Assembly (NCBI GenBank): GCA_048885535.1 | Contig: JBHLLO010000047.1 | Location: forward strand, 1 to 22,294 | DNA from: Candidatus Hermodarchaeota archaeon | GTDB taxonomy: Archaea; Asgardarchaeota; Lokiarchaeia; Sigyniarchaeales; SOKP01 | Direction of reading: 5' to 3' | DNA: 22,294 nucleotides | In this document: positions 213 through 21,653 of the stretch, piece after piece | How positions within the stretch are numbered: the first letter of the stretch is position 1 | Layout of the letters: the number at the start of each line of letters is the position of its first letter | Notes under the pieces: model-generated | The model's input: only the letters and a program-made list of their open reading frames with translations | Told to the model about the DNA's origin: nothing | Databases searched by the model: none | Program-made: the position numbers and the translations under genes

Positions 213-2150
213 TCAATTTAGTTCCTCTTGGTCTTCACCATTTAATCCGATTAGTTTCTTGAATTCTGGCAAATCTTTAATGTTTACCAGGAAGCGATCA
301 GTTTTCGCCCATTCTTTAAACTTCTTATCGATTTCGATTGCCTTTCTCAATAATTCTAAAGCTTTTTTACTATTTTTATTTACTGCTTCAATACAGGCGC
401 AATTATATATAATATCACCATTGGTGGGATAACCCTTTATAGCTTTATCAAAATACTGCTTAGCTTTTCCATAATTTCCCAAAAACAGGTTTGCATTTCC
501 AACATTATTCTGTACAACAGCTATATCTGCTTTATGAGCCTTTTTCTCTCTATAAGGTAATGCTTCGAGATCTTCTAAAGATTCTAGATACTTCTTTTCT
601 GCTTTAGCGTATTGGTAAGTGTTCAAGTAAAAATGTCCAACTTTATTTTGCGCTACCATATAATCAATAGAATATAGACTAGGATCTCGCTCTGAGAGTT
701 CTTTTTTGGTATTTAAGTGTTCAAGATACATCTCTTCTGCATCTCCAAGTCGTCGTAAATGAATATATAGGGTTGCTAGATCTTCTTGAATAATTGCGAG
801 ATAAGGAAGTTGTTTATCAGGGTATTGTTCGGCGAGCTTACTCCTAATTTTTAAAGCTTCAAGATACATCCGTTCAGCTTCATTAAGTTTATTCATTTCA
901 ACGTAATTCAATCCCAGATTGCTATAGGTTGTAGCCACATCAGCTAAGTGACCATCATAACATGTTTTTGCATACAATTTCTTTAATGTTGGCTCATCCA
1001 AAACAGTCCCTTTAGATTCTCCCAAAAGGTCTAGATCGATATAAACATGGCCAATTTCTTCCTGACTTTTATTAAGATCAGGTAAATAGATGTCATGAAA
1101 CTCCTTTAATGTCTCCCTGTAATCCTCAAAAGCTTCCTGACACAACTTCTCAGGATCCAAATCGATAGGTAAATCAACCTCTGGTTTCTTATAAATGGGA
1201 GTTTCTGGCTTTCCTTCGAATTTGATATCTTCCTCCTCAATTGTAAAAATATCCTTGTATTTTTCTTCTACTTCATTGTAAAGGTTCAGTGCTTTGAGAA
1301 AGATTTTTTCTGCTTCCTCAAATCTTTTGAGATCCGCATAGAGATTTCCCAGATGATTATGAACTGTTGCAACGTAAGGTAAGTAGATTTTGTAATAAGT
1401 TTTGGCTAATTCCTTATAAGTCTCTAATGCATCTAAATAAGCTTTTTCCGCTTCCTTCTGTCTTCCAGCATCAGCATAAAGATTCCCAAGCGCTACCAAG
1501 ATCGGAGCTTTATATTTATCTTCTAATCCAACCATCTTCTCGCCAATTACAATAAGCTCTGGGATTCCAAAACCAGCCACTCGCAGCATATTGTAAACTC
1601 CTAGGAATCCTATTGCAAGCTCGTCATTAATAGCAATTTGGGATTGATGATGCAAAATTTCTGTAACGTTGTAGTATTCTTCTGGGAAAATTTTACTCTT
1701 TTCTTCATAATAGGCTACAGCCTTTTCATGGCAGCTTTTATCGGCTAACTTTAGCATCGCTTTCTGAACGTACTCTGATGCAAAATCAAGAGTTCCTTCC
1801 TGCTCCCCCTTTTTAATTAATAATCCCGTTTCTACCAATTTGTTTATCTTATCTTGAACATTGCCCCCATTGTAGGATTTTTCGACGGTTTTACGGTCAA
1901 TATTAGTTTTTATTTTGGTATTCAATACGCTTAAATTTTTGAGCAATTCTATAGCCCCAGAAGAAGTAGAAAGAATTTTTTCTATGATTTTTGGATAAAG
2001 ATCGATTATAGCTTCCTTTTTCTTGAAATCAAAAGTCTCTAATTCATCCAAATGCAGAACTTGATAATTATTTTCTATAAGTTTTCTCAATATTTCATGG
2101 TTTTTGGGAATTTCTTTTATAATCTTTGCTAATTTTTCCGGTAGTGTTAT
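213..2150 (-). CDS. TPR protein with STAND-type helical/winged-helix N-terminus; effector-less, NTPase-less paralog of 18396..21653
   Basis: 625-aa ORF from TTG 2090; frame open to 2156 and homology continues upstream, so the start may be ATA 2150. Shares LSVLNT.(I/L).TNIDR, (C/S)HEKA..YYE, 46-aa YLP.VA....NLG.LY TPRs and C-terminal YN.AC...K.KALE.L.KAI..D with 18396..21653. Confidence 0.85.
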   Translation of the reverse strand: MTLPEKLAKIIKEIPKNHEILRKLIENNYQVLHLDELETFDFKKKEAIIDLYPKIIEKILSTSSGAIELLKNLSVLNTKIKTNIDRKTVEKSYNGGNVQDKINKLVETGLLIKKGEQEGTLDFASEYVQKAMLKLADKSCHEKAVAYYEEKSKIFPEEYYNVTEILHHQSQIAINDELAIGFLGVYNMLRVAGFGIPELIVIGEKMVGLEDKYKAPILVALGNLYADAGRQKEAEKAYLDALETYKELAKTYYKIYLPYVATVHNHLGNLYADLKRFEEAEKIFLKALNLYNEVEEKYKDIFTIEEEDIKFEGKPETPIYKKPEVDLPIDLDPEKLCQEAFEDYRETLKEFHDIYLPDLNKSQEEIGHVYIDLDLLGESKGTVLDEPTLKKLYAKTCYDGHLADVATTYSNLGLNYVEMNKLNEAERMYLEALKIRSKLAEQYPDKQLPYLAIIQEDLATLYIHLRRLGDAEEMYLEHLNTKKELSERDPSLYSIDYMVAQNKVGHFYLNTYQYAKAEKKYLESLEDLEALPYREKKAHKADIAVVQNNVGNANLFLGNYGKAKQYFDKAIKGYPTNGDIIYNCACIEAVNKNSKKALELLRKAIEIDKKFKEWAKTDRFLVNIKDLPEFKKLIGLNGEDQEELN

Positions 2151-2474: not shown

Positions 2475-5400
2475 ATGAGTAGTGAATATGTCATTGTTGA
2501 CGATAAAAGGTATAATGTGGAAAATAACCTTTTAAATTTAAGCGGTTTAGGAATTTACGATATTTCGGAAATTGAAGGATTAGATCGCTTACCTAACCTT
2601 ATTGGATTAAACCTTAATAATAATAATCTTACACAGCTTAGAGGCATAAGTCATTTAACTCAACTTCAAATATTATCAGCTGAAAATAATCAGATAAGAA
2701 CAATTACAGGTTTAGAGAACTTAACTGATCTCTTTGCAATAGGGCTTGGTAATAACGAGATAACAGAAATCTATGGGTTAGAAAATCTGATTAAACTCCA
2801 AATTTTAACACTTTCTAGTAATCATATAAGAGAAATCAAGGGCTTGAATAGTCTCATCAACCTCCAGACTTTATACATCAATAACAATGAAATTAAAGAT
2901 ATTAAGAGTTTAGAAAACTTAAGGAATCTGCAAAGATTAAGACTTGATGGCAATCAAATTACAGAAATCAGAGGTTTAGAAAATCTAACCTATCTACAAG
3001 AATTACAACTTCATAATAATTTGATCAAAGAAATTAGAGGATTGAATAATCTCTCGAACCTTCAGACTTTATACATCAATAACAATGAAATTAAAGAAAT
3101 TAAGGGTTTAGAAAATTTAAGGAATCTACAGACTTTAACTCTTAATAATAATCAAATTGAAGAGTTTAAGGGGATAGGAAATTTAGTTTATCTACAACAA
3201 TTACAGCTCCATAATAATCAGATCAGAGAAATTAAAGGTGTAGAAAACCTGACTAACCTTCAGCTCTTGCATCTTGATGGGAACAGAATTGAAGACATAA
3301 GACCATTAGCAAAACTAATCAATCTCCAAGAATTATTCCTTTTTGATAATCAGATTAAGGATATAAGCAGCTTGACGAATTTAACTAATCTGGTAGATTT
3401 ACGCCTTTTCAATAATCAAATCATAGATATCAAAGCTATAGAAAAGATGCTTCAACTCGAAAAATTGGCACTTGATGGTAATCAAATTACAGAAATCAAA
3501 AGTTTGGATAAATTAACCAAAATTCAAATATTACAACTCCATAATAATCAGATCAAAGAAATCAAAGGTTTGGAAAATCTGACTCAAGTTCAGTTGTTAT
3601 ATCTTAATAACAATCAAATTAGGGAGATTAAAGGTTTACAAAATCTTAGTTCTTTACAAGAATTGTATCTCAATAACAATGAGATTAAAGAAATTAAGGA
3701 TTTAGAAAATATGGTTAATTTACAAAGGTTAACACTTGAAAATAATCATATCACTGAAATTAAGGGCTTGGAATTTTTAAATAATCTGCAAGATTTAAGA
3801 CTTTTTAATAATAATATCGCAGAGATCAAGGGTCTGGAAAATCTGACTAACCTTCAAATTTTATATCTCGATGATAATAAAATTGATGAAATAAAAGGTT
3901 TAAAAAATCTGAGAAATCTCCAAGAGTTATACCTATTTAATAATCAGATTAACGAAATTAGGGGTTTAGAAAGTTTAACTAATCTCAACGCATTGCATCT
4001 TTATAATAATCAAATTACAGAAATTAAAGGATTGGAACGTCTGACTAACCTTCAAATACTATTACTTGATAGTAATAAGATCAAGGAAATAAAAGGCTTA
4101 AGTAATTTGCACAATCTCCAACAATTATTCCTTTTTGGTAATGAGATCACGAATATGAATGGTCTAGAAAATTTAATTAATCTACAAGATTTACGCCTTT
4201 ATAATAATCAAATCACAGAAATTAAGGGCATGGAAAAAATGGTTTATCTCCAAAAATTAGCACTCGATGGTAATCAAATTACAGAAATCAAGGGCTTGGA
4301 AAACTCACCTGGTATTCAGATATTACAGCTCCATAGAAATCAAATCTCAGAGATTGAAGGTTTGGATCATCTTACTAACCTCCAAATTTTATATCTAAAT
4401 GAAAATAAAATTGAGGAAATAAAAGGTTTAGAAAATATGAGAAATCTTCAAGAATTATACCTTTTTAACAATCAAATTGGGGAAATAAAGAACTTAGATA
4501 ATTTAACCATGCTTAAGGCATTGCATCTTTATAATAATCAAATAACGGAGATTAAAGGGTTGGATAATCTTACTCAACTTCAAGTTTTGTATCTCGATGG
4601 CAATAGAATAGAAAAAATAGAAGGTTTAACAAATTTGATGAATTTACGAGATTTATCCCTTTTTGAAAATCAGATTAAGGAGATAAGGGGTCTAGAAAAC
4701 TCAGTTAATCTGGAAGATTTACGTATTTACAATAATGAAATTACACAAATCACGGGCTTAGAAAATCTGTTTAATCTCAAAAAATTAGCACTTGATGGTA
4801 ATCAGATTACAGAAGTTAAGGGCTTGGAAAATTCAACGAACATTCAAATTTTACAACTCCATAATAATCAAATAAGAGATATTAGTGGATTGCGAAATAT
4901 GATTAACCTTACGGTTTTACATCTTGATGGTAATCAAATTGAAAACATAGAAGCATTGAGAAGTTTGATCAATCTTGAACAATTATTCCTTTTTAATAAT
5001 CAAATTAAAGATACTAGTAGCTTAAGAAATTTAACTCGTTTAACAGATCTACGCCTATTTAATAACCAAATTACAGAAATCAGGGGTTTAGAGAACATGA
5101 TATATCTCCAAAAATTAGGACTCGATGGTAATCAAATTACTGAAATCAAGGGCTTGGAGAACTCACCTTACATCCAAATATTACAACTCCATAACAATCA
5201 AATTTCAGAGATTAAGGGTTTAGAAAATCTTACTAACCTTGAGGTATTGTATCTAAATAATAATAATATTAGGGAAATAAAAGGGTTAACAAATGCTGTC
5301 AATCTCCAAGAATTGTTTCTAAATAATAACCAGATTCAGGAAATTAAAGGGTTAGACCATTTGACTAATATGCAAAATTTATATCTTAATAACAATAATA

Positions 5401-7667
5401 TTACTGAAATAAAAGGTTTAGAAAACATGGTTAATCTTCAAAAATTGACACTAGAACATAATCAGATAACAGAAATCAAGGGTTTAGAGAGACAATTCAA
5501 TCTGCAGTTATTACAACTCCAGATCAATAATATCACACAGACCAAGGGCTTAGAAAATTTGACTAATCTTCAAACCTTAAATCTCAGTGATAACAAAGTT
5601 GAGGATGTAAAAGGGCTAGCAAACTTGAGGAATCTTCAAGAATTATTCCTATTTAGTAATCAAATTAAGGATACTAAAGGTTTAGAAAATTTAAGAAATC
5701 TTCAACAACTACAAATCTATTATAATCAGATCGTAGATATAAAGGGTTTAGAAAATTTGATCAAACTTCAGAAATTATTCCTTTTCGGGAACAAAATTAA
5801 AAACATCACACCATTAACAAATCTAAGTAATCTTGAAATATTAGCCCTAAATAATAATGAAATCGCAGAAATCAAGGCCTTAAGAAATTTGATTCGCCTA
5901 CAAGTATTATTTCTTGAAAATAATCAAATAGAAGAAATTAAGAGTTTAGAAAATTTAACTAATATGCAAGAGTTGTATCTTGATAGTAATATGATAAGAG
6001 AGATCAAGGGATTGGAAAACATGGTTTATCTCCAAAAATTGACTCTCACTAATAACCAGATCACAAAAACCAAAGGTTTGGAAAACTTACAGAATCTGCA
6101 GTTATTAGAACTACAGAATAATCAAATTACAGAAATCGAGGGTTTGGAAAAACTGAGTAACCTTCAGAAGTTAAATTTAGAGAATAATAAACTCTCAGAA
6201 ATTAAGGGATTAGAAAGGATGGTTAATCTTGAATATCTAAATCTGAGTAGAAACGAAATAGTAAAGATGAATAACTTGAATAATTTAAAAAATTTGCAAG
6301 AATTATATCTTATAGGCAATAAAATTGAGGAGATTACCAATTTAGACAATTTAATAAATCTTAGAAAATTATTTCTTAAAAACAATAATATTGTTGAGGT
6401 TAAGGGTTTAGAAAACCTTGAAAATCTTGAATTCGTGAGTTTATTCGGAAATCCAATTAAAATGGAGGAACAAGAATACGTTAGTAAAGACATTCCTACA
6501 ATCTTACAGTTTTGCAAAGAAAAAGTAAGGGGGGTCATAAAAGAGATTCCAAAAGAAGAAGAGAAAATTGAAGAAAGAGTAGCAAGAGTTATTGATTTTG
6601 AATTTCTAAGTCGGCGAGCTGTAGGTGTGGATGGGTTTAAAAAAGCCTTTAATATAGCTTTTGAAAGGTATCATGAATTACTAGATTCTCCAGAAGATTA
6701 TTCAGATCTTGACTCTTCATTTCTTATTTCTAAAAAAGATGAAGTAATGAATAAATATCAATTTCCGACATTATACGATTTAGTATTAATTATGAAATAT
6801 GATTTAAATTTAGCCAAAAAAGTCGGAAAGTATTTATTAGATGAAGGTGCTATACCAAAATTCCCTAGAATCCCTGATTTTGAAAAAGTCAAAGATTTCA
6901 TAATTACTTTATCAAAATATGAAAAATATTATCCAATAGATACACTATGCGAAGAAAAGGAGATTGATTGCATCCATCTTAAGGACTATATCAGAGAGTT
7001 GATTGATTCTCAAGAATTAAACGTAAAAATTGATGAGAATGAATCTAAAATTATCTTTCTTGGGCAAGAAGGAAAAGTAAAAGCACAAGAGACTGTTCCG
7101 AAATCGGAAGCTACTGCAATGGAGGACGAAAAGAAAGAAAAACGATTTGAAGAACGCACTGACAAAACAAAACCGGGTCCGCCAGAAGAACCTATTAGCC
7201 CTCCTGCTCCAAAACCTATTCCTCCTCCTCCTCCACCTGAGGGAAAGATAAAGATATTCTTAAGCTATTCAAGTTTAGATTCAACAATATTCAATATTGA
7301 GGAAATTGTAAAGGAACTAAAAACCAATATTTTAAATGTTCAAGTAGATTGGATGGATAACCCAAAAAATACGGAAAGAAAATGGATGGATTTTATGAAT
7401 GAAAAAGTACCTCAATGTGATATTTTATTGCTAATCTGTTCGCCTAATTCAAAAAACTCAGATATGGTAATAGAAGAATGGCAAATGGCTGTAAGAAAAA
7501 AGAAGGTTGTAATCCCTATCTTTTATGAGAACGAATACATTCCAGATATACTTGAAACTTATAAAGGTTTTAAGTTTAATATATTTGACCCTAGAACCTC
7601 TATTAAAGGACTAATAGACCATATTAGAGGAAGATTGGAAGGACAAGTTCTTGATCGAATGGTTTAG
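2475..7667 (+). CDS. Giant cytosolic LRR (SDS22-like) + PCI-like winged helix + polyproline linker + TIR domain protein
   Basis: 59 in-register 22-aa LxxLxxLxLxxNxIxxIxGLxx units plus an N-terminal partial one. C-terminal KIFLSYS...CDILLLICSPNSKNSDMVIEEW...VIPIF is a TIR (TIR_2-like) domain with conserved Glu. No signal peptide or TM segment. Confidence 0.93.
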   Translation: MSSEYVIVDDKRYNVENNLLNLSGLGIYDISEIEGLDRLPNLIGLNLNNNNLTQLRGISHLTQLQILSAENNQIRTITGLENLTDLFAIGLGNNEITEIYGLENLIKLQILTLSSNHIREIKGLNSLINLQTLYINNNEIKDIKSLENLRNLQRLRLDGNQITEIRGLENLTYLQELQLHNNLIKEIRGLNNLSNLQTLYINNNEIKEIKGLENLRNLQTLTLNNNQIEEFKGIGNLVYLQQLQLHNNQIREIKGVENLTNLQLLHLDGNRIEDIRPLAKLINLQELFLFDNQIKDISSLTNLTNLVDLRLFNNQIIDIKAIEKMLQLEKLALDGNQITEIKSLDKLTKIQILQLHNNQIKEIKGLENLTQVQLLYLNNNQIREIKGLQNLSSLQELYLNNNEIKEIKDLENMVNLQRLTLENNHITEIKGLEFLNNLQDLRLFNNNIAEIKGLENLTNLQILYLDDNKIDEIKGLKNLRNLQELYLFNNQINEIRGLESLTNLNALHLYNNQITEIKGLERLTNLQILLLDSNKIKEIKGLSNLHNLQQLFLFGNEITNMNGLENLINLQDLRLYNNQITEIKGMEKMVYLQKLALDGNQITEIKGLENSPGIQILQLHRNQISEIEGLDHLTNLQILYLNENKIEEIKGLENMRNLQELYLFNNQIGEIKNLDNLTMLKALHLYNNQITEIKGLDNLTQLQVLYLDGNRIEKIEGLTNLMNLRDLSLFENQIKEIRGLENSVNLEDLRIYNNEITQITGLENLFNLKKLALDGNQITEVKGLENSTNIQILQLHNNQIRDISGLRNMINLTVLHLDGNQIENIEALRSLINLEQLFLFNNQIKDTSSLRNLTRLTDLRLFNNQITEIRGLENMIYLQKLGLDGNQITEIKGLENSPYIQILQLHNNQISEIKGLENLTNLEVLYLNNNNIREIKGLTNAVNLQELFLNNNQIQEIKGLDHLTNMQNLYLNNNNITEIKGLENMVNLQKLTLEHNQITEIKGLERQFNLQLLQLQINNITQTKGLENLTNLQTLNLSDNKVEDVKGLANLRNLQELFLFSNQIKDTKGLENLRNLQQLQIYYNQIVDIKGLENLIKLQKLFLFGNKIKNITPLTNLSNLEILALNNNEIAEIKALRNLIRLQVLFLENNQIEEIKSLENLTNMQELYLDSNMIREIKGLENMVYLQKLTLTNNQITKTKGLENLQNLQLLELQNNQITEIEGLEKLSNLQKLNLENNKLSEIKGLERMVNLEYLNLSRNEIVKMNNLNNLKNLQELYLIGNKIEEITNLDNLINLRKLFLKNNNIVEVKGLENLENLEFVSLFGNPIKMEEQEYVSKDIPTILQFCKEKVRGVIKEIPKEEEKIEERVARVIDFEFLSRRAVGVDGFKKAFNIAFERYHELLDSPEDYSDLDSSFLISKKDEVMNKYQFPTLYDLVLIMKYDLNLAKKVGKYLLDEGAIPKFPRIPDFEKVKDFIITLSKYEKYYPIDTLCEEKEIDCIHLKDYIRELIDSQELNVKIDENESKIIFLGQEGKVKAQETVPKSEATAMEDEKKEKRFEERTDKTKPGPPEEPISPPAPKPIPPPPPPEGKIKIFLSYSSLDSTIFNIEEIVKELKTNILNVQVDWMDNPKNTERKWMDFMNEKVPQCDILLLICSPNSKNSDMVIEEWQMAVRKKKVVIPIFYENEYIPDILETYKGFKFNIFDPRTSIKGLIDHIRGRLEGQVLDRMV
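2589..6460 (+). repeat. Coding tandem repeat, 66-nt period, 59 LRR units
   Basis: Manual parsing of the translation into 22-aa units without indels. Confidence 0.92.
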
Positions 7668-7684
7668 ATTAAAATCTTTACTAA

Positions 7685-7694
7685 TTTTTTTTTT
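7685..7694 (+). terminator. Oligo-T archaeal terminator after the LRR-TIR gene
   Basis: Run of 10 T about 18 nt after stop 7667. Confidence 0.55.
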
Positions 7695-7781
7695 GAAATT
7701 ATTTACCAATCACACTTTACCTTCTATTTAAAAAATTACCTTATATTTTTTTTCTTTAAAATCCACTTTTGAGAAAAAGGG

Positions 7782-7805
7782 AACTGTTATTCTAACTGTT
7801 ATTCT
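7782..7805. repeat. Perfect 12-bp tandem duplication (AACTGTTATTCT x2)
   Basis: Directly visible at 7782-7793 and 7794-7805. Confidence 0.85.
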
Positions 7806-14826: not shown

Positions 14827-17088
14827 ATGCCTATTGAGGGTGAAACAATACCAAACATTTACTTGTCTGGAGAAGATTTTATGCATAATTATGAATCATT
14901 CCCTCCAGAGGATGATCTCTCTGGAAAGACTATTTTACTTTCTTTTCTAGATTATGAGGAAATCATTCCAGGTAATAGTACAATTCTTATAAATTGTCTA
15001 TTAAATTTATGTCAGCTGTATTCTACTCACTGCATTCAAATAGTTATAGTCTTTCCTGTATTAAATGGTACAACCGAACTAACTGTTAAGACATGGCTAG
15101 AAGGACTTGGTGTCAATTTTCCTGCTATCCACAGTTTTGATATTTGGAGAGATTTTATGACAGGTATAACAGATGGAACAGAGGAAGTGAGACCCCATTC
15201 TTTTATTCTCGAGAAGATCGATCCCGATAACTGGATTATTAGAAAACGATATTGTGTATTACCTCCAGTATGTAGTGATTTGGAAGATTTCTTATTAAGC
15301 TTCATAGATGTACGTGAGCCTATAGATTTAGAAATGGTTATGGATGTCTCTGGGAGTATGAACAGCATTCCTCCTAATGCGAATGAAACGAAGTACGAGA
15401 TGATGAAGAAAGCCATTACTATAGTTGGAACCTATTTAAAGGATAATGCGCATTGTGATGATAGAATGGGATTGATTTGGTTTACGGATGAGGCAAGTGA
15501 TTACTCAAGAAATAATCAAAAATTATTTCGAATTAAAACTAATTGGGATGAGTTAAGTGTTCAGGTTAATAACCATGGAACAGGTAACTGTACTGCTATG
15601 GGAGCAGGTTTACAGACAGCAATTAATACCTTATCTTCAAGTAACCAGAAATTTGTAATTTTATGTACCGATGGAATGCAAAATATAAACCCAATGGTAT
15701 TAGACCTTACAGCACCCGATGGTTCTGTATACTATGCAATTGTAAATGATGACGTACGATATCGCGAGTGTGGACCACATTCTCAGGTTGAACCTTCAGG
15801 TACAGATATTTCTAGCTACAATACTTGTGTTCATACTATTGGCATTGGGATTATAGAAGATTATGATTTAATTCTAGATGGTATAGCTACCGAAACACAA
15901 GGTTTTTACCAAGAAACGAATAATCCTGGAGACGATCTATTAGGGGATTATTTCGTAGCACTCCTTGATTGTTTGGGTAGAGGTTCTCCCTCAATTCTAT
16001 ATATTAATAACGGGAATTTATCTATAGAAGAGCATGAAAAATCAGAGATCTTCCATCTCAACAGCTCTGTTCGAAAAATAACTGTAATCATTTCTTGGAA
16101 AAAATCACAAGGGAGTAATTTCATGTTCTGGTTGTATACCCCTGATGGGGTGCTCTTAGATCTACATAATGAGATGAGAATCTATGAGCACCATTGTATG
16201 GCAACAATATATTTACCTAAACGACAAAATGGGGACAATTTGGAGTATATAGGTGAATGGCGTATGATGATTCGAGGCGAGATACCTAATAGTTCTGCTG
16301 ATTATAATGTAATTATCATTGGGGAGGATAAAGATATCAAATTGGTTTTTGATTTTCCAAGAAAACGATTTGAAGTTGGCGACCTACTCCCAATTAAAGT
16401 TTTTATTTTAAAGAAGAAAAAACCATTAGCTATTGAGCCTAAGGAGATCACTATAGAAAAGAAACTTTTACTTACACCGCTTCCTGAACTTATAGCTAAA
16501 TATAAAATATCTCCAAATGAGTTGTTAGAAAAAACGAAAACCATACCAGATAGAGCTCCTAAGAACCTTCTAAATCTGAAACTTAAAGTTATGACTTCTG
16601 ATCCAAAATTTCAAAAAAGTTTAATACCTGATATTAAACGATTCTCTCTTCAAAGAGGAAATCTTGAGTGTAAATTTGAAAAAGAGGAAGTTCTCATCCC
16701 TATTGCTCTGGAACAACCAGGGACACATAATTTTAAAATAAGAGTCCGATACGAGAGTCCTGAAGAGGGTCCTATATGTCGTACACATATGATTTCGATA
16801 ATAGTGGAACCTGGTAAAGTCGATCCTAAACAGTCTGATTTCAGAAAGAAAGGCAAGATGATTTATATTACTCCTCGTAATAAAAAGGGTCAATTATTTG
16901 GTCCAGGATATAGCCATAAGTTTAAACTGCAAGCTGGGGAAAAAGAATATGATATCGAATTCAAGGACTTATTGGACGGTACATACCAGATTGAACTTCC
17001 AGAGAAAGTAGTGGAAGAAATAAAAGAGAAAAAACTTGATGTTGACATCATATTCCGTAAGAATGTAATCTGGAGAAGAAAATTATAA
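14827..17088 (+). CDS. vWA domain protein with N-terminal redoxin/thioredoxin-like fold and C-terminal beta-sandwich/Ig-like domains
   Basis: Intact MIDAS: VMDVSGSM, GNCTAMGAGL, VILCTDG, VHTIGIG. N-terminus GETIP...LSGKTILLSF...IQIVIV...NFP...PHSFILE follows the AhpC/TSA-TlpA pattern without CxxC. C-terminal ISW...LYTPDG...GEW and ITPRNKKGQLFGPG...DLLDGTY motifs. Confidence 0.85.
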   Translation: MPIEGETIPNIYLSGEDFMHNYESFPPEDDLSGKTILLSFLDYEEIIPGNSTILINCLLNLCQLYSTHCIQIVIVFPVLNGTTELTVKTWLEGLGVNFPAIHSFDIWRDFMTGITDGTEEVRPHSFILEKIDPDNWIIRKRYCVLPPVCSDLEDFLLSFIDVREPIDLEMVMDVSGSMNSIPPNANETKYEMMKKAITIVGTYLKDNAHCDDRMGLIWFTDEASDYSRNNQKLFRIKTNWDELSVQVNNHGTGNCTAMGAGLQTAINTLSSSNQKFVILCTDGMQNINPMVLDLTAPDGSVYYAIVNDDVRYRECGPHSQVEPSGTDISSYNTCVHTIGIGIIEDYDLILDGIATETQGFYQETNNPGDDLLGDYFVALLDCLGRGSPSILYINNGNLSIEEHEKSEIFHLNSSVRKITVIISWKKSQGSNFMFWLYTPDGVLLDLHNEMRIYEHHCMATIYLPKRQNGDNLEYIGEWRMMIRGEIPNSSADYNVIIIGEDKDIKLVFDFPRKRFEVGDLLPIKVFILKKKKPLAIEPKEITIEKKLLLTPLPELIAKYKISPNELLEKTKTIPDRAPKNLLNLKLKVMTSDPKFQKSLIPDIKRFSLQRGNLECKFEKEEVLIPIALEQPGTHNFKIRVRYESPEEGPICRTHMISIIVEPGKVDPKQSDFRKKGKMIYITPRNKKGQLFGPGYSHKFKLQAGEKEYDIEFKDLLDGTYQIELPEKVVEEIKEKKLDVDIIFRKNVIWRRKL

Positions 17089-17220: not shown

Positions 17221-17520
17221 TTACTCCTCTGAGGTTTGCTTTTCTCTATTTAAGCTCTCTAATGCATCCGCAGCAGAGCTTACAACAATCAGTATCTTCA
17301 ATGAAGCAGATTTGCATCCTTTCTCATTAAGTACAGTGGATAAGCGGAGTAATTCTAAGACGGCTTCAACTAGTTCTTTTTTTCCAAAATATTCACTAAG
17401 CATATCTTGTAATTGTTCAACGGCATAATCATCGAATTCTATTGGCTCAAATCCCTCATAAGCCATTTCTAATGCCTTTTCTATAAGAGGATGAAGTGGT
17501 CTTTTCTGATTTCCAGTCAT
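17221..17520 (-). CDS. Small acidic alpha-helical hypothetical protein, tandem paralog copy 2
   Basis: 99 aa; SD AAGGTGA 6 nt before ATG; about 74% identical (hand count) to 17616..17915. Confidence 0.88.
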   Translation of the reverse strand: MTGNQKRPLHPLIEKALEMAYEGFEPIEFDDYAVEQLQDMLSEYFGKKELVEAVLELLRLSTVLNEKGCKSASLKILIVVSSAADALESLNREKQTSEE

Positions 17521-17615: not shown

Positions 17616-17915
17616 CTAATCTTTTAATGTATTTTCTTCTTTTTCAAATTCCTTTAATGCATCGGCAGCAGAGCTTACAACAATCAGTATCTTCAATGAA
17701 GCAGATTTGCATCCTTGCTCATTTAGAACAGCGAATAAGCGAAGCAATTCCATAACGGCTTCAATTAGATCCTGCTTTCTATGATATTCTTTAAGCATAT
17801 CTTGCAGTTGTTCGACCGCATAATCATCGAATTCAATTGGCTCAAACCCTTCATAAGCCATTTTCAGTGCCCTTTCAACAATAGGGTGAAGTGGTCTTTC
17901 TTGATTTTCAGTCAT
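17616..17915 (-). CDS. Small acidic alpha-helical hypothetical protein, tandem paralog copy 1
   Basis: 99 aa; SD AGGTGA 6 nt before ATG; conserved with 17221..17520 including synonymous changes. Confidence 0.88.
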   Translation of the reverse strand: MTENQERPLHPIVERALKMAYEGFEPIEFDDYAVEQLQDMLKEYHRKQDLIEAVMELLRLFAVLNEQGCKSASLKILIVVSSAADALKEFEKEENTLKD

Positions 17916-18395: not shown

Positions 18396-21300
18396 ATGCT
18401 TAAAATTTTTTTAAGTTCTACCTATCGAGACTTAACAGATGCTCGCTCAAAAATTCTTCAACAGTTAAATTCTGCTTTTAAGGTGGTTGGGATGGAGGAA
18501 TTTATCCCAGATGGTTCTGATTCGCAAGAGGTTTGTATCGGTAATTTAAAAAAAGTGAAAGGAAATGGGATTGTAATTTTTCTAATTTCTCCATATTATG
18601 GTTCCCTCATGGAATCATGTTCGCTTAAAGAAGATTGTAAAGCGGAGTGCCCCATGAAAGGTGACGGTCATATTTCATATACTCATTGTGAGTATAAAAC
18701 AACTATAGCTGAGGGAATTTTGCATCAAACATATCTTGTCGCAAAGGGCTGGGACGCTCCTGATGTAAAGAAGGGGGCTTTGCAATTCAAGGAGGAAATT
18801 GGAAAAGAATATCTCGGGTTTGTTGATATCGAAGATCCTAACTTATTAGGGTTAATTTGCAGTAACTTGGCAACAAAAATTACTGAATGGCATGTGCAAA
18901 ATAAATTAGAGTTCCCTAAATTTGTTGATAGGGAGGAAAAACTTAATGAAATCATTGAAAATATCAACGGGAAAGTCGAAGTATGGGGTGTTGGTGGTGT
19001 GGGAAAAACTGCATTAATAGAAGTAGCCCTTCTTATTCAAAAGTTAAAGGGAAAAAGTATAATTACAATTGGAACACCGAAAACTTATGCAAGTGGTTCT
19101 GGATTTAAGGACTTTAGGGATAAGTCTGAAGAAGCTCAATATATAGCGGATTCACCAGATCAAATTACAATTTATGATGTTATAAATGCCTTAGTTAAGG
19201 TCAAATTAATATCTAATGTCGATGAGGTTATGAAAATGCCTTCCAATGAAAAGATCGCACTCTTATCTAAGATAGTTAGAAGAGAGAAAAATCTGATTCT
19301 ATTTATCGACGACTTTCATTTAGCAACTGAAGAGGTGGTGGAGATAGCAAAATCAGTAGATCATGTTATCCTTTCTTCTCGAAGGAATTCCTATATCGCA
19401 AAAGACATTTATTTAAGTGGCATTGATAAAGAAGAGAGAGAGAATCTGATAAATCTTTTTTCTATAGAGCCACTTCCTAAGGATGTTAAGAATTTGATTG
19501 CTAATATTACCGAGGGTCATCCTGTATCTACTGCAATACTTGTAAAGAATTATCAGAAGATCAACTTTAATAACCTCAAGGGTTTTGATCTTAAGAATGC
19601 TAACCAAGGGCAGATTAATGATTTTTTTAGAAGAGTGATTGAGGAAATATTCTCTTCAAACCCTAATGCATTACAATTGCTTGAAGATCTTTCTGTATTA
19701 AATACGGATTTAGAAACTAATATTGATCGAGAAAGTATTGAAAAAATATATTCCTCTGAAGATGTTTCTAATGATTTTAATGAGTTAATAGACGCGGGGA
19801 TGTTGAAAAAGAAGGAAGGCTCCCATAGCACATATGAATTTTCTTTCAAACATATTCAAGATGCTCTTGAAGATAAAGCATCTGCTGAGAGCCATGAAAA
19901 AGCGATCCTATATTATGAAACAAAAGAGAAACTCATGCAAGACAAATATATGATTGATGACGAGGTAGAGATTCTTTATCACAAAGTAAAATCAAATCCT
20001 ATAGAACAATTAGTGGATGAATTGCTTGAGATAAAAGAAAGACTATATCCTATCCATTATGGGTTCAAGCGTTTAATTCATGTAGGTGAAGAATTAAAGA
20101 CTTCAGTTAATGAAATAGATAAGGCATATATAGATTTGACGCTTGGACTTTTATTCAGAGATTTAAGGCGATTTAAAGAGGCTGAAACCATGTTTTTTAA
20201 CTCATTAAATGTTTATAAAAAGTTAGCAGAGCAGAATCCTGAAGACTATCTACCGGAAGTTGCCTTAACGCAGAATAACCTTGGAGCACTATATTATGAT
20301 TTAAAAAGATTTAAGGAAGCAGAAACGATGTATCTTGATGCTTTAAAGTTAAGAAAGGAGCTAGCAGAAAAGAATCCAGATACATATCTATCTGATTTTG
20401 CTTTAACTCAGAATAACCTTGGAGCTTTATACAATGATTTAAAGAGATTTGAGGAGGCAGAGACTATGTTTCTAGACGCATTAAAGTTAAGAAAGAAGTT
20501 AGCAGAGCAAACTCCCGAAGCATATCTACCCGATCTTGCCATCACGCAGAATAGCCTTGGAACTTTATATACTTATTTAAAGCGGTTTGAGCAGGCAGAA
20601 ACCATGTATCTTGATGCATTAAAACTAGGAATGAAGTTAGCAGAGCAGAATCCTGATGGCTATTTGCCCGATGTTGCTATGACAAAGAATAACCTTGGAG
20701 CTTTATATACTTATTTAAATCGATTTGAGGAGGCAGAGACCATGTATCTTGACACATTAAGCCTAAGAGTGAAGTTAGCAGAACAGAATCCAGAAACCTA
20801 TTTACCTGCTGTCGCTTTAGCTCAAAATAACCTTGGAACTTTATATGTTAATTTAAGGAGGTTTGAGGAGGCAGAAACCATGTATCTTAAAGCATTAAAT
20901 ATAAGAATTAAGTTAGCAGAAAAGAATCCTGATGTATATCTACTCGACATTGCCATGACTCAGAATAACCTTGGAAACTTATATATTTATCTAGAGCGAT
21001 ACCAGGATGCAGAGACCATGTATCTTAACTCATTAAACGCTTTTAAAGAATTAGCAAGTCAAAATCCTGATGCATATCTTTCTAACGTTGCTATGGCTCA
21101 GAATAATCTTGGAGTTTTATATAATGATTTAAATCGGTTTGAGGTGTCAGAGACCATGTATCTAAACTCATTAAATACTTATAAAGAGTTAGCAGAACGG
21201 AGTCCCGATGCCTATCTCCCCGCTCTCGCAGAGACTCAGAATAACCTTGGAAGCTTATATGCTGATTTAAGGCGGTTCAAAGCAGCAGAAACCATATATC

Positions 21301-21653
21301 TCGATGTATTAAACACGAGAATGAAGTTAGCAGATCAAAATCCCGATATATATCTCCCTGCTGTTGCAGATACTCAAAATAATCTTGGAATTTTATACAT
21401 TCAAATGAAAAGATACGAAGAAGCGGAGAATTATTTTAATAACATATTGGATAAATATCCTAATTACGGTTCTGCTTGGTATAATAAAGCGTGTCTTGCA
21501 TCCCTAAAGAATAATAAAGAAAAAGCTTTAGAATATCTTAATAAAGCAATCGATCTTGATCAAACTTATATTGATATGGCAAAATCTGATGAGGACTTTA
21601 ATAATTTACGAGGTTTAGAAGAATTCAAGAAATTATTGGGTGAATTAATTTAA
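18396..21653 (+). CDS. NLR/Avs-like protein: DUF4062 (TIR-like) + STAND P-loop NTPase + TPR sensor
   Basis: KIFLSSTYRDL...R, GMEEF, YGS, ISYTHCEY (DUF4062); FVDREE, Walker A VWGVGGVGKT, Walker B LILFIDD, GHP (GxP); nine 46-aa TPRs plus two canonical TPRs and a YNKAC...DEDFNNLR cap. Confidence 0.92.
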   Translation: MLKIFLSSTYRDLTDARSKILQQLNSAFKVVGMEEFIPDGSDSQEVCIGNLKKVKGNGIVIFLISPYYGSLMESCSLKEDCKAECPMKGDGHISYTHCEYKTTIAEGILHQTYLVAKGWDAPDVKKGALQFKEEIGKEYLGFVDIEDPNLLGLICSNLATKITEWHVQNKLEFPKFVDREEKLNEIIENINGKVEVWGVGGVGKTALIEVALLIQKLKGKSIITIGTPKTYASGSGFKDFRDKSEEAQYIADSPDQITIYDVINALVKVKLISNVDEVMKMPSNEKIALLSKIVRREKNLILFIDDFHLATEEVVEIAKSVDHVILSSRRNSYIAKDIYLSGIDKEERENLINLFSIEPLPKDVKNLIANITEGHPVSTAILVKNYQKINFNNLKGFDLKNANQGQINDFFRRVIEEIFSSNPNALQLLEDLSVLNTDLETNIDRESIEKIYSSEDVSNDFNELIDAGMLKKKEGSHSTYEFSFKHIQDALEDKASAESHEKAILYYETKEKLMQDKYMIDDEVEILYHKVKSNPIEQLVDELLEIKERLYPIHYGFKRLIHVGEELKTSVNEIDKAYIDLTLGLLFRDLRRFKEAETMFFNSLNVYKKLAEQNPEDYLPEVALTQNNLGALYYDLKRFKEAETMYLDALKLRKELAEKNPDTYLSDFALTQNNLGALYNDLKRFEEAETMFLDALKLRKKLAEQTPEAYLPDLAITQNSLGTLYTYLKRFEQAETMYLDALKLGMKLAEQNPDGYLPDVAMTKNNLGALYTYLNRFEEAETMYLDTLSLRVKLAEQNPETYLPAVALAQNNLGTLYVNLRRFEEAETMYLKALNIRIKLAEKNPDVYLLDIAMTQNNLGNLYIYLERYQDAETMYLNSLNAFKELASQNPDAYLSNVAMAQNNLGVLYNDLNRFEVSETMYLNSLNTYKELAERSPDAYLPALAETQNNLGSLYADLRRFKAAETIYLDVLNTRMKLADQNPDIYLPAVADTQNNLGILYIQMKRYEEAENYFNNILDKYPNYGSAWYNKACLASLKNNKEKALEYLNKAIDLDQTYIDMAKSDEDFNNLRGLEEFKKLLGELI
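20121..21362 (+). repeat. Coding tandem repeat, 138-nt period, nine 46-aa TPR units
   Basis: Recurrent CAGAATAACCTTGGA and GCAGA(A/G)ACCATGTATCT at 138-nt spacing. Confidence 0.9.

Follow-up and report, generated by a model that had tools for sequence, protein, structure and literature searches.

A soluble 1730-residue protein with 60 leucine-rich repeats before a TIR domain in an Asgard archaeon, and the module family to which it belongs

The LRR-TIR gene and its repeat array

The window analysed here is a whole contig of 22,294 bases from Candidatus Hermodarchaeota archaeon (assembly GCA_048885535.1, contig JBHLLO010000047.1). One of its genes, hereafter the LRR-TIR gene, encodes a protein in which a long array of leucine-rich repeats (LRRs) precedes a C-terminal TIR domain, with a helical module and a PCI-type winged helix between the two (Table 1). 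This module, together with the winged-helix domain, is the main new result, and among the known members of an as yet undescribed archaeal family the 1730-residue protein is the largest. The open reading frame (ORF) comprises 1730 codons without an internal stop and translates to 1730 residues; its first ATG lies at 2475, and an in-frame stop is found upstream at 2448-2450. Since the host genome is AT-rich (G+C 30.1%) and chance stop codons are frequent in such DNA, a frame of 5.2 kb does not arise by chance.

Table 1. Parts of the LRR-TIR protein and other genes of the window
Feature	Position	Strand	Basis or remark
N-terminal LRR cap with start codon (residues 1-19, MSSEYVIVDDKRYNVENNL)	2475..2531	+	Cap pattern xEYxGxxY also opens the LRR domains of P0151 and P0070
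60 LRRs of 22 residues (residues 20-1339), consensus LQILYLFNNQITEIKGLENLTN; GNP C-cap begins in the last unit	2532..6491	+	Regular expression, Pfam
C-cap helix and low-confidence charged helix (residues 1340-1363)	6492..6563	+	Predicted local distance difference test score (pLDDT) 43-58 for model residues 1-30; GNPI...C cap common to P0151 and P0070
Lineage-specific helical module (residues ~1364-1466)	6564..6872	+	Motif PTLYDL..YDL..AKKxGKYL..G.I..FP; pLDDT 76-97
PCI-type winged-helix domain (residues 1467-1532)	6873..7070	+	Fold matches
Disordered linker (residues 1533-1588): charged part, then PGPPEEPISPPAPKPIPPPPPP (poly-Pro)	7071..7238	+	pLDDT 36-48
TIR domain (residues 1589-1725)	7239..7649	+	Pfam TIR_2, fold matches
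Glu1668 codon, putative catalytic glutamate	7476..7478	+	Conservation, alignment to TIR-1
TPR protein	213-2090	-	Pfam
LRR-TIR gene	2475-7667	+	
ORF with about five hydrophobic segments (5-TM ORF), 200 residues	8244-8846	+	
SIR2_2-TPR protein, 799 residues	8887-11286	-	PADLOC generic SIR2 and Aga-SIR2 matches
LVIVD-propeller-TIR protein, 1016 residues	11606-14656	+	14 LVIVD repeats, E 1e-151; TIR_2 at residues 881-986
vWA protein	14827-17088		
Two tandem paralogous 99-residue ORFs (MTxNQxRPLHP..EGFEPIEFDDYAVEQLQDML...)	17221-17520, 17616-17915	-	In the 1.3-kb gap between the vWA and STAND genes
DUF4062-ATPase-TPR protein, 1085 residues	18396-21653	+	

The initial annotation of this DNA, made from its letters and reading frames, had described about 60 uninterrupted LRRs of 22 residues over some 1300 residues, and the count holds: the array comprises 60 units, each exactly 22 residues long, and is free of indels. 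The regular expression LxxLxLxxNxI matches 58 times at a spacing of 22 residues with one step of 44 (residues 42-1318), and the two units that fail it, at residues 20 and 64, stay in register. The 60 in-register units fit LxxLxLxxNxIxxIxxLxxLxx with a period of 22, a repeat type that we take to be the SDS22/internalin class. Pfam returned LRR_4 with an E-value of 1.4e-211, and LRR_8 and LRR_9 also match. Matches to the NCBIfam models internalin_A (688 bits, cut-off 1600) and internalin_H (639 bits, cut-off 1050) both fall below cut-off and fit the 22-residue internalin/SDS22 type.

Entropy per repeat position is lowest in the core (positions 1, 4, 6, 9, 11 and 17; 0.1-0.7 bits), amounts to 1.2-1.9 bits at most convex-side positions, and reaches 3.1-3.4 bits at positions 3, 5 and 7, which are rich in Y, F, H, N and D. 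The latter are the exposed beta-strand residues of LxxLxLxxN on the concave face. The solenoid would thus have a uniform framework but an inner face that does not repeat, as befits a binding surface for a ligand that is extended, non-periodic or large. Of the 121 long LRR proteins compared, the query has the longest run, 59-60 units by a crude count; next come 44 units at any spacing and 33 at a spacing of exactly 22. As the longest regular run of those compared, an indel-free solenoid of 60 repeats is of structural interest in itself.

Repeat arrays of this kind call for scrutiny of the assembly. At the DNA level, mean identity between the 66-nucleotide units is 59.5%; it is highest, at 94%, for units 6 and 9, which have a 35-mer in common. 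No exact repeat of 40 nucleotides or more occurs in the array, and only one reaches 35. Tandem Repeats Finder detected periods of 66, 132, 198 and 264 nucleotides matching at just 64-78%, in addition to a 24-nucleotide repeat in the linker region (7189-7235). Words of the stretch were present in seven public sequencing runs, four of which, from one sediment study, contain 97-100% of them. In two runs, Logan contigs span 3068-7800 (X1) and 3068-6926 (X2) without a single difference, and in a sample not flagged as a source (X4), a contig spans 3316-6770 with one difference; no indels relative to the assembly were reported in the Logan contigs of the gene. A mangrove run from another study (X5) yielded identical pieces of 161-249 nucleotides at low depth. 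Contigs break only at 2865-2899 and 3068-3092, the common 35-mer of units 6 and 9. Since the 223-nucleotide contig that bridges these units in X1 is no deeper than its flanks (16.8 versus 18.4 and 17.3), the loop between them is passed once.

Given the divergence of the units and the contigs from three samples of one study that reproduce it, the array is not an assembly expansion, the outcome on which the initial annotation had made its claim depend; the LRR count may be off by three units at most, at 2862-3125. Nor is the gene a chimera, since in each of three samples one contig runs across the junction between the LRRs and the C-terminal part (about 6490). Candidate copy-number variants, suggested by short contig joints with sides of 20-30 nucleotides, were rejected and read instead as other LRR genes or organisms. 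Separately, X2 holds a second contig of 123 nucleotides, at about a quarter of the depth, with seven substitutions in the part of the gene that encodes the helical module (6927-6989), which points to strain-level variation in that sample.

The protein has no Walker A motif, strict or loose, and Pfam detected no Roc, COR, NACHT, NB-ARC, nSTAND or other nucleoside triphosphatase (NTPase) family at E<=0.01. No transmembrane (TM) segment is predicted; the highest mean Kyte-Doolittle value over 19 residues is 0.85. By hydropathy, Walker A scan and Pfam alike, the lack of TM, P-loop and Roc regions that had been read from the sequence is therefore upheld, as are the LRR-before-TIR order in a soluble protein and the charged, proline-rich linker in front of the TIR domain. 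The resemblance to Toll-like receptors (TLRs) that had been drawn extends to domain order: the N-terminus is acidic and lacks a signal peptide, the interval between LRRs and TIR consists of the winged helix and the charged/Pro linker with no TM helix, and the TIR domain is not of the animal type.

The helical module, the winged helix and the TIR domain

Two structure predictions cover the region behind the repeats. The first, of the C-terminal part with 15 aligned relatives, has a mean pLDDT of 77.8; the second, of residues 1335-1532, has a pLDDT of 85.0 and a predicted TM-score (pTM) of 0.77. Together they show a helical region at model residues 30-130 and a winged helix of three helices and two to three strands at 133-198, followed by a disordered stretch of 56 residues and then a flavodoxin-like domain. 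About 200 residues of helical domains had been noted here; the structured helical/winged-helix region is present and measures about 170. Its first part, the helical module (about 100 residues), belongs to no family in Pfam or NCBIfam (Pfam gave no family at E<=10 for residues 1335-1560), and no paralogue of it was found in the host genome. Fold matches of the module are weak (97-109 residues aligned, root-mean-square deviation (rmsd) 9-10). Its only invariant residue is Lys1449 (K115 in alignment A1), in the third helix of a unit resembling a helix-turn-helix (HTH). A homodimer prediction with two copies of residues 1335-1532 scored 0.09 and 0.02 against a mark of 0.42, which gives no answer either way, and an ESM Atlas search with residues 1335-1560 returned no usable match.

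The winged helix aligns best by VIA-align with DDRGK1 (8c0d_E; Z 10.2, rmsd 1.8, 62 residues aligned), followed by a CSN3-type CSN subunit (4d18_C; Z 8.8), eIF3 (7a09_C; Z 8.6) and the PCI domain 1ufm (Z 7.5); generic DNA-binding winged helices stand in the same list at Z 6.6-8.3. Foldseek matches for the middle region are weak, none reaching E<=0.001, and almost all are PCI subunits of the CSN or the proteasome lid. The initial annotation had placed a PCI domain between LRRs and TIR. At the sequence level this does not stand, as Pfam PCI (PF01399) has no match in residues 1335-1560; it is right in spirit, being supported by the predicted fold and by relatives. Pfam PCI does match P0070 (28 bits), a 548-residue protein of the same genome (contig C11; 26.2 bits), in which PCI lies directly before TIR, and 5 of 130 TIR relatives.

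Homologues were sought by scanning the last 396 residues against 1.84 billion representative proteins with HMMER. Nearly all of the 928 matches run through the TIR domain, the best being 34% identical; among the 150 listed, 18 also match the module region (residues 1340-1480). With phmmer, 17 module relatives were found at E-values of 1e-20 to 1e-8, besides a weaker, tail-only match to P0070. In this family, the PTLYDL..AKKxGKYL module stands directly upstream of TIR_2, as it does in the query; the match to a hidden Markov model runs over model positions 143-468. In front of the module, members carry TPRs (P0004, P0009 and P0039, and the TPR-module-TIR locus L026), WD40 repeats (P0012, P0029, P0120), a coiled coil (P0046), or TM segments with a PCI-like winged helix (P0014). 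The module-TIR unit thus returns with several front ends (WD40, TPR, coiled coil, TM), the pattern of a fixed signalling end fitted with exchangeable sensors. Some proteins have the module but no TIR, namely SIR2-TPR-module proteins (L021, L022) and LRR-module-LRR proteins (L019, L020, L023). To judge from these architectures, it is a mobile, adaptor-like domain of this archaeal class, most often set between a repeat sensor and TIR. As a separate observation, P0151 and the locus L027:3270-4847 (genome G168) encode proteins of about 500-526 residues with an LRR N-cap like that of the query, few LRRs, two tandem modules and no TIR; P0151 ends in a Cys-rich zinc-ribbon or RING-like motif.

The module is restricted in distribution. 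Of 400 genomes covered in the phylum, 26 contain it, with 23 of 134 in the window's own family, two of three in another family of the same class, and none in the remaining families. Of 28 module matches outside the query itself, 15 lie in open frames of 1221-1232 residues, and a translated example reads WD40 (multi-propeller), coiled coil, module, TIR. A contig search with the WD40-module-TIR gene of the same genus located eight loci. The query's own C-terminus, used for a pattern search of genome contigs, gave 412 pattern matches and no relative, and a word-index search of limited sensitivity with residues 1335-1730 gave 3945 candidates among proteins of 951-3028 residues, none at E<=0.001. 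The exact LRR-TIR sequence is absent from a collection of 15 billion. The closest relatives in design are the WD40-module-TIR proteins of about 1228 residues (P0154, same-genus genome G261) and the TPR-module-TIR proteins (P0004, P0009), which are likewise cytoplasmic, lack an NTPase, belong to the same archaeal class and hold the module, with the same invariant residues, directly upstream of TIR_2. They are unnamed and, as far as searched, undescribed. They differ from the query in having a WD40 multi-propeller or TPR array in place of LRRs; most of them have neither the poly-Pro tether nor the additional PCI-type winged helix, and module identity is 28-42%.

The identity of the C-terminal domain as TIR, with a Glu codon at 7476-7478, was borne out. 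Pfam assigns TIR_2 (PF13676) to residues 1594-1702 with 52.2 bits (cut-off 28), or 55.2 bits for the C-terminal fragment alone, and the animal-type TIR family PF01582 has no match at E<=0.01. The domain is modelled with a pLDDT of about 90, and the best fold matches are the TIR domains of MAL (Z 14.4, rmsd 2.9, 129 residues aligned), RPS4 (Z 14.2) and SARM1 (Z 13.6). Foldseek gave 47 matches at E<=0.001 with TIR chains first, among them SPARTA TIR-APAZ, TIR-1 and SARM1 at E of about 1e-4. By sequence, the TIR domain alone found chance-level matches in the PDB (E 0.6), and the profile from alignment A1 was dominated by TPR rows; a TIR-only profile (A2) aligned Glu1668 with the glutamate that closes the VHKE motif in TIR-1 of C. 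elegans (8p2m). This is the catalytic Glu of SARM1-type NAD+-cleaving enzymes (NADases), where it follows strand C. Glu1668 is invariant in A1 (E334; 15 rows) and A2 (E82; 14 rows) and at least 90% conserved across the 150 listed relatives. In a TIR tree of 152 rows and 136 columns, in which 69 of 149 inner branches stay open, the module label requires 13 changes, against a mean of 17.3 after shuffling; 1 of 500 shuffles was as low. Two metagenomic relatives stand apart by their TIR number: P0002 (604 residues), the best match of the query's C-terminus (E 1.9e-51), has four tandem TIR domains, and P0098 (2023 residues) has at least seven together with a WD40 propeller.

Other proteins that join LRRs to TIR were surveyed. 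Among the 120 best long LRR relatives, just two have TIR, both with Roc-COR between LRR and TIR, and 130 TIR relatives include 16 with LRR_8 and five with Roc. At least four LRR motifs were found by regular expression in 18 of the 150 listed TIR relatives, and of the 17 of these with TIR, 12 have TIR first and four or five have LRRs first (P0068, P0070, P0077, P0116 and perhaps P0097). All 17 are at most 985 residues long, a P-loop-like motif occurs in only one, and those with named sources are from Promethearchaeota and Hermodarchaeota. The LRR-PCI-TIR order proposed as an architecture search does exist: P0070 has it, with an N-cap and C-cap like those of the query. The short Asgard proteins P0070 (460 residues) and P0116 (295 residues), from Promethearchaeota, and P0068 (730 residues), from Hermodarchaeota, are like the query in having LRRs before TIR and no P-loop, but show 5-8 LRR motif matches by regular expression against its 60 repeats. 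In P0070, the TIR is 31% identical to that of the query and the module tail lies upstream of the LRRs, whereas in the query the module is downstream. By their domain composition, LRR-TIR proteins free of an NTPase are thus a recurring and unstudied Asgard theme, and the 1730-residue protein is its giant.

The genomic setting

The genome (3.09 Mb, 112 contigs), assembled from a metagenome, is that of a Lokiarchaeia-type Asgard archaeon (Promethearchaeota). It is 91.6% complete and 1.9% contaminated, and named relatives of both the TIR and LRR parts come from metagenome-assembled genomes of Promethearchaeota or Hermodarchaeota. ARAGORN recovered only 13 tRNA genes in the 3.09 Mb. TIR_2 has nine matches in the genome. 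On the contig itself, an NAD-type effector domain is joined to repeats in four of the eight large ORFs (Table 1), a composition also described for conflict islands of bacteria (PMC7159879; PMC8195603). The LVIVD-propeller-TIR protein is a second repeat-then-TIR protein, one without the helical module. The SIR2_2-TPR neighbour has counterparts in related genomes, SIR2-TPR proteins of 1260-1322 residues that end in the module (L021, L022). The protein at 18396-21653 combines an N-terminal DUF4062 (TIR-like), ATPase_2/AAA_16 matches below the Pfam cut-offs, a GVGGVGKT P-loop and many TPRs, an NLR-like STAND architecture.

The LRR-TIR gene is separated by 384 nucleotides from its divergent upstream neighbour and by 577 from the next gene downstream, and therefore looks monocistronic. 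PADLOC gave a weak ThsB-like match for its TIR (23.3 bits) and listed no ThsA model for the SIR2_2-TPR neighbour; the locus is thus not a Thoeris system, in which a ThsB-type TIR lies next to a ThsA (SIR2/SLOG). A link to the 5-TM ORF was considered and rejected: the protein family of this ORF is present in 86 of 135 genomes of the archaeal family, and its best homologue (56% identity, genome G197) lies beside a thermosome gene and a WD40 gene, not beside a TIR gene. The 5-TM ORF is itself a diverged second copy of a membrane protein, with 46% identity to a gene on another contig of the genome (C3:23479-23985).

Proposed function and its alternatives

On balance, and with modest confidence, we read the LRR-TIR protein as a cytoplasmic, single-chain and NTPase-independent sensor-effector with TIR NADase activity and an immune role. 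Its constant module-TIR end and the exchange of front ends among relatives, together with a tether that is long and flexible and an intact Glu, suggest a single-chain sensor-effector. In such a protein, the 60-repeat solenoid of internalin/SDS22 type, with concave residues that differ between repeats, would be the ligand-binding part. The helical module and PCI-type winged helix may serve as a transducing or assembly platform, and the 56-residue charged/poly-Pro tether would carry the TIR domain with its putative catalytic Glu intact. The LRRs would bind a non-self ligand that is large or multivalent, such as a viral structural protein or polymer, and the TIR domains would then be released or clustered to form an inter-TIR active site. 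TIR domains need self-association to form their active site, as in SARM1 and in plant and bacterial TIRs. The assembled TIRs would cleave NAD+, causing either its depletion or the production of ADP-ribose (ADPR)-type signals, and the outcome would be arrest or death of the infected cell. The protein thus probably senses invaders without an ATP-driven switch.

The cytosolic pattern receptor of the initial annotation fits the variable concave positions, the exchange of the front end for WD40 or TPR, and the neighbouring SIR2, TIR and STAND-repeat genes, and as a whole it is supported in part. As that annotation predicts, the solenoid may make more than one superhelical turn and could wrap a large ligand or filament. 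We would extend it only tentatively to a whole class: Lokiarchaeia-type Asgards may possess an undescribed, NTPase-independent type of immune receptor in which a swappable LRR, WD40 or TPR sensor feeds through a winged-helix/PCI-like platform to a TIR NADase. The 60-LRR protein would be its extreme member, with a multi-turn solenoid that reads an extended or polymeric viral structure and clusters the TIR domains on the ligand as template.

Several observations weigh against the immune sensor-effector. No orthologue of the whole protein occurs among the 1.84 billion representatives, so that conservation of the exact 60-LRR architecture cannot be shown. PADLOC recognised no known defence system at the locus, and none of the seven public runs with the stretch is listed as an RNA run. 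The conserved Glu is no proof of NADase activity, since related folds match as well: SEFIR domains and nucleoside 2-deoxyribosyltransferases are also found among the fold and profile matches. In the TIR tree, the rows nearest to the query (P0003, P0021, P0019, P0020, P0042) lack the module, and inheritance of module and TIR as one cassette is not demonstrated. Moreover, LRR, WD40 and TPR proteins abound in Asgard genomes and may have roles outside immunity.

The strongest alternative, albeit one that we hold to be unlikely, is a scaffold or regulator without an immune role. The LRR solenoid would then organise a structure of the host cell, be it the cytoskeleton, membrane-remodelling machinery or ubiquitin-like machinery, the PCI element would dock into a PCI-type complex, and the TIR domain would be an adaptor or a local regulator of NAD+ or nucleotides. 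The best fold matches of the winged helix are indeed subunits of assembly platforms (DDRGK1/UFL1, CSN, eIF3, proteasome lid), and the Pfam-recognised PCI-TIR cassettes of 5 of 130 relatives, of P0070 and of the C11 protein of the same genome point in the same direction. The WD40-module-TIR relative, with frames of 1221-1232 residues in 15 genomes, also gives the impression of a conserved component of the cell rather than of a defence gene with fast turnover. On the other side, the family as a whole retains the TIR motif with its catalytic Glu, the gene is surrounded by the effector-repeat fusions that typify conflict islands, the module is patchy in the phylum, and the 60-LRR form itself is without an orthologue.

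It is also conceivable, but improbable, that the helical/winged-helix module is the sensor, binding a nucleic acid or nucleotide via its basic helix AKKxGKYL, and that the repeats only multimerise or localise the protein. Only one residue of the module never varies, the Lys in helix three of its HTH-like unit; the tandem winged helices of SelB and DNA- and Z-DNA-binding winged helices are among the fold matches, and the module exists without TIR in the SIR2-TPR-module and LRR-module-LRR proteins. However, the fold matches of the module proper are weak, variation of the concave face between repeats is hard to explain for a pure scaffold, and PCI-type winged helices usually bind proteins. Finally, an artefact, either an expanded shorter LRR gene or a chimeric join of LRR and TIR parts, is highly improbable and largely refuted: repeats are a classic source of misassembly and the Logan contigs do break at units 6 and 9, but the units are diverged, single contigs cover most of the array and the junction, depth is normal and indels are lacking.

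If the family is immune, as the sensor-effector reading holds, it would represent a new activation logic for prokaryotic TIR immunity, and Asgard defence would be wider than the catalogued systems. Fusions of TIR domains to repeat sensors occur in bacteria, plants and animals; those cytosolic ones that have been studied well use an NTPase switch (NLR, Roco) or SAM assembly (SARM1), and the LRR-before-TIR order is regarded as a hallmark of membrane TLRs. Thus, the combination of a TIR effector and a repeat sensor as such is already known; notable here are the NTPase-free LRR-to-TIR order in Asgard archaea, the undescribed adaptor module of a lineage-specific family, and the very long, regular LRR array. 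In the closest archaeal relatives of eukaryotes, the protein could then be a prokaryotic equivalent, located in the cytosol, of the LRR-to-TIR logic known from TLRs, and its C-terminal cassette of about 400 residues offers a tractable case for NADase assays. The abstract and the TIR/NLR passages of an account of Asgard defences name systems such as argonaute, viperin and NLR and make no mention of LRR-TIR proteins (Leao et al., 2024; PMC11291487). Likewise, neither LRR-TIR proteins of Asgard archaea or other prokaryotes nor the helical module are described in the literature covered, which includes passages of PMC11249213, PMC11291487, PMC7159879, PMC8195603 and bioRxiv 10.1101/2024.10.26.620412; the supplementary tables of PMC11291487 could list TIR-bearing systems.

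By analogy of architecture, the closest known working counterpart of the LRR-TIR protein would be SARM1, and not TLRs or NLRs. SARM1 is a TIR NADase in which ARM repeats and SAM domains precede the TIR. Like SARM1 and C. elegans TIR-1, the query joins a repeat sensor and an assembly domain to a C-terminal TIR with the catalytic Glu and lacks an NTPase, and the TIR folds agree at Z 13.4-13.6. Unlike them, it has LRRs in place of ARM repeats and a winged-helix module in place of SAM octamerisation, and there is no detectable sequence relation beyond the TIR domain. TLRs have in common with it the LRRs N-terminal of TIR; the query differs in its 22-residue repeats, its TIR_2 rather than PF01582 domain, the retained Glu, the inserted winged-helix region, and the lack of a signal peptide and TM segment. 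Repeat numbers of TLRs are far below 60. The Listeria internalins InlA and InlH have the same 22-residue LRR type, but the query is without their signal peptide, inter-repeat Ig-like domain and cell-wall anchor, and its array is about four times longer than that of InlA.

Other cytoplasmic proteins with both LRRs and TIR are the Roco proteins of LRR-Roc-COR-TIR order (P0179, assigned by its source to Emticicia fontis; P0265) and a TIR-STAND-LRR protein of the same genome. Between LRR and TIR, these have a Roc-COR GTPase or a STAND NTPase, and the query has neither. Of the long LRR arrays in proteins that also have a TIR, that of P0179 comes nearest to the query's, at 45% identity and with 33 consecutive units of exactly 22 residues. 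The TIR-nSTAND3-LRR protein of the host genome (1123 residues; L043, C9:30580-33948), in which the nSTAND3 match is weak (23.7 bits, below cut-off), displays a domain order like that of plant TNL proteins in an Asgard archaeon.

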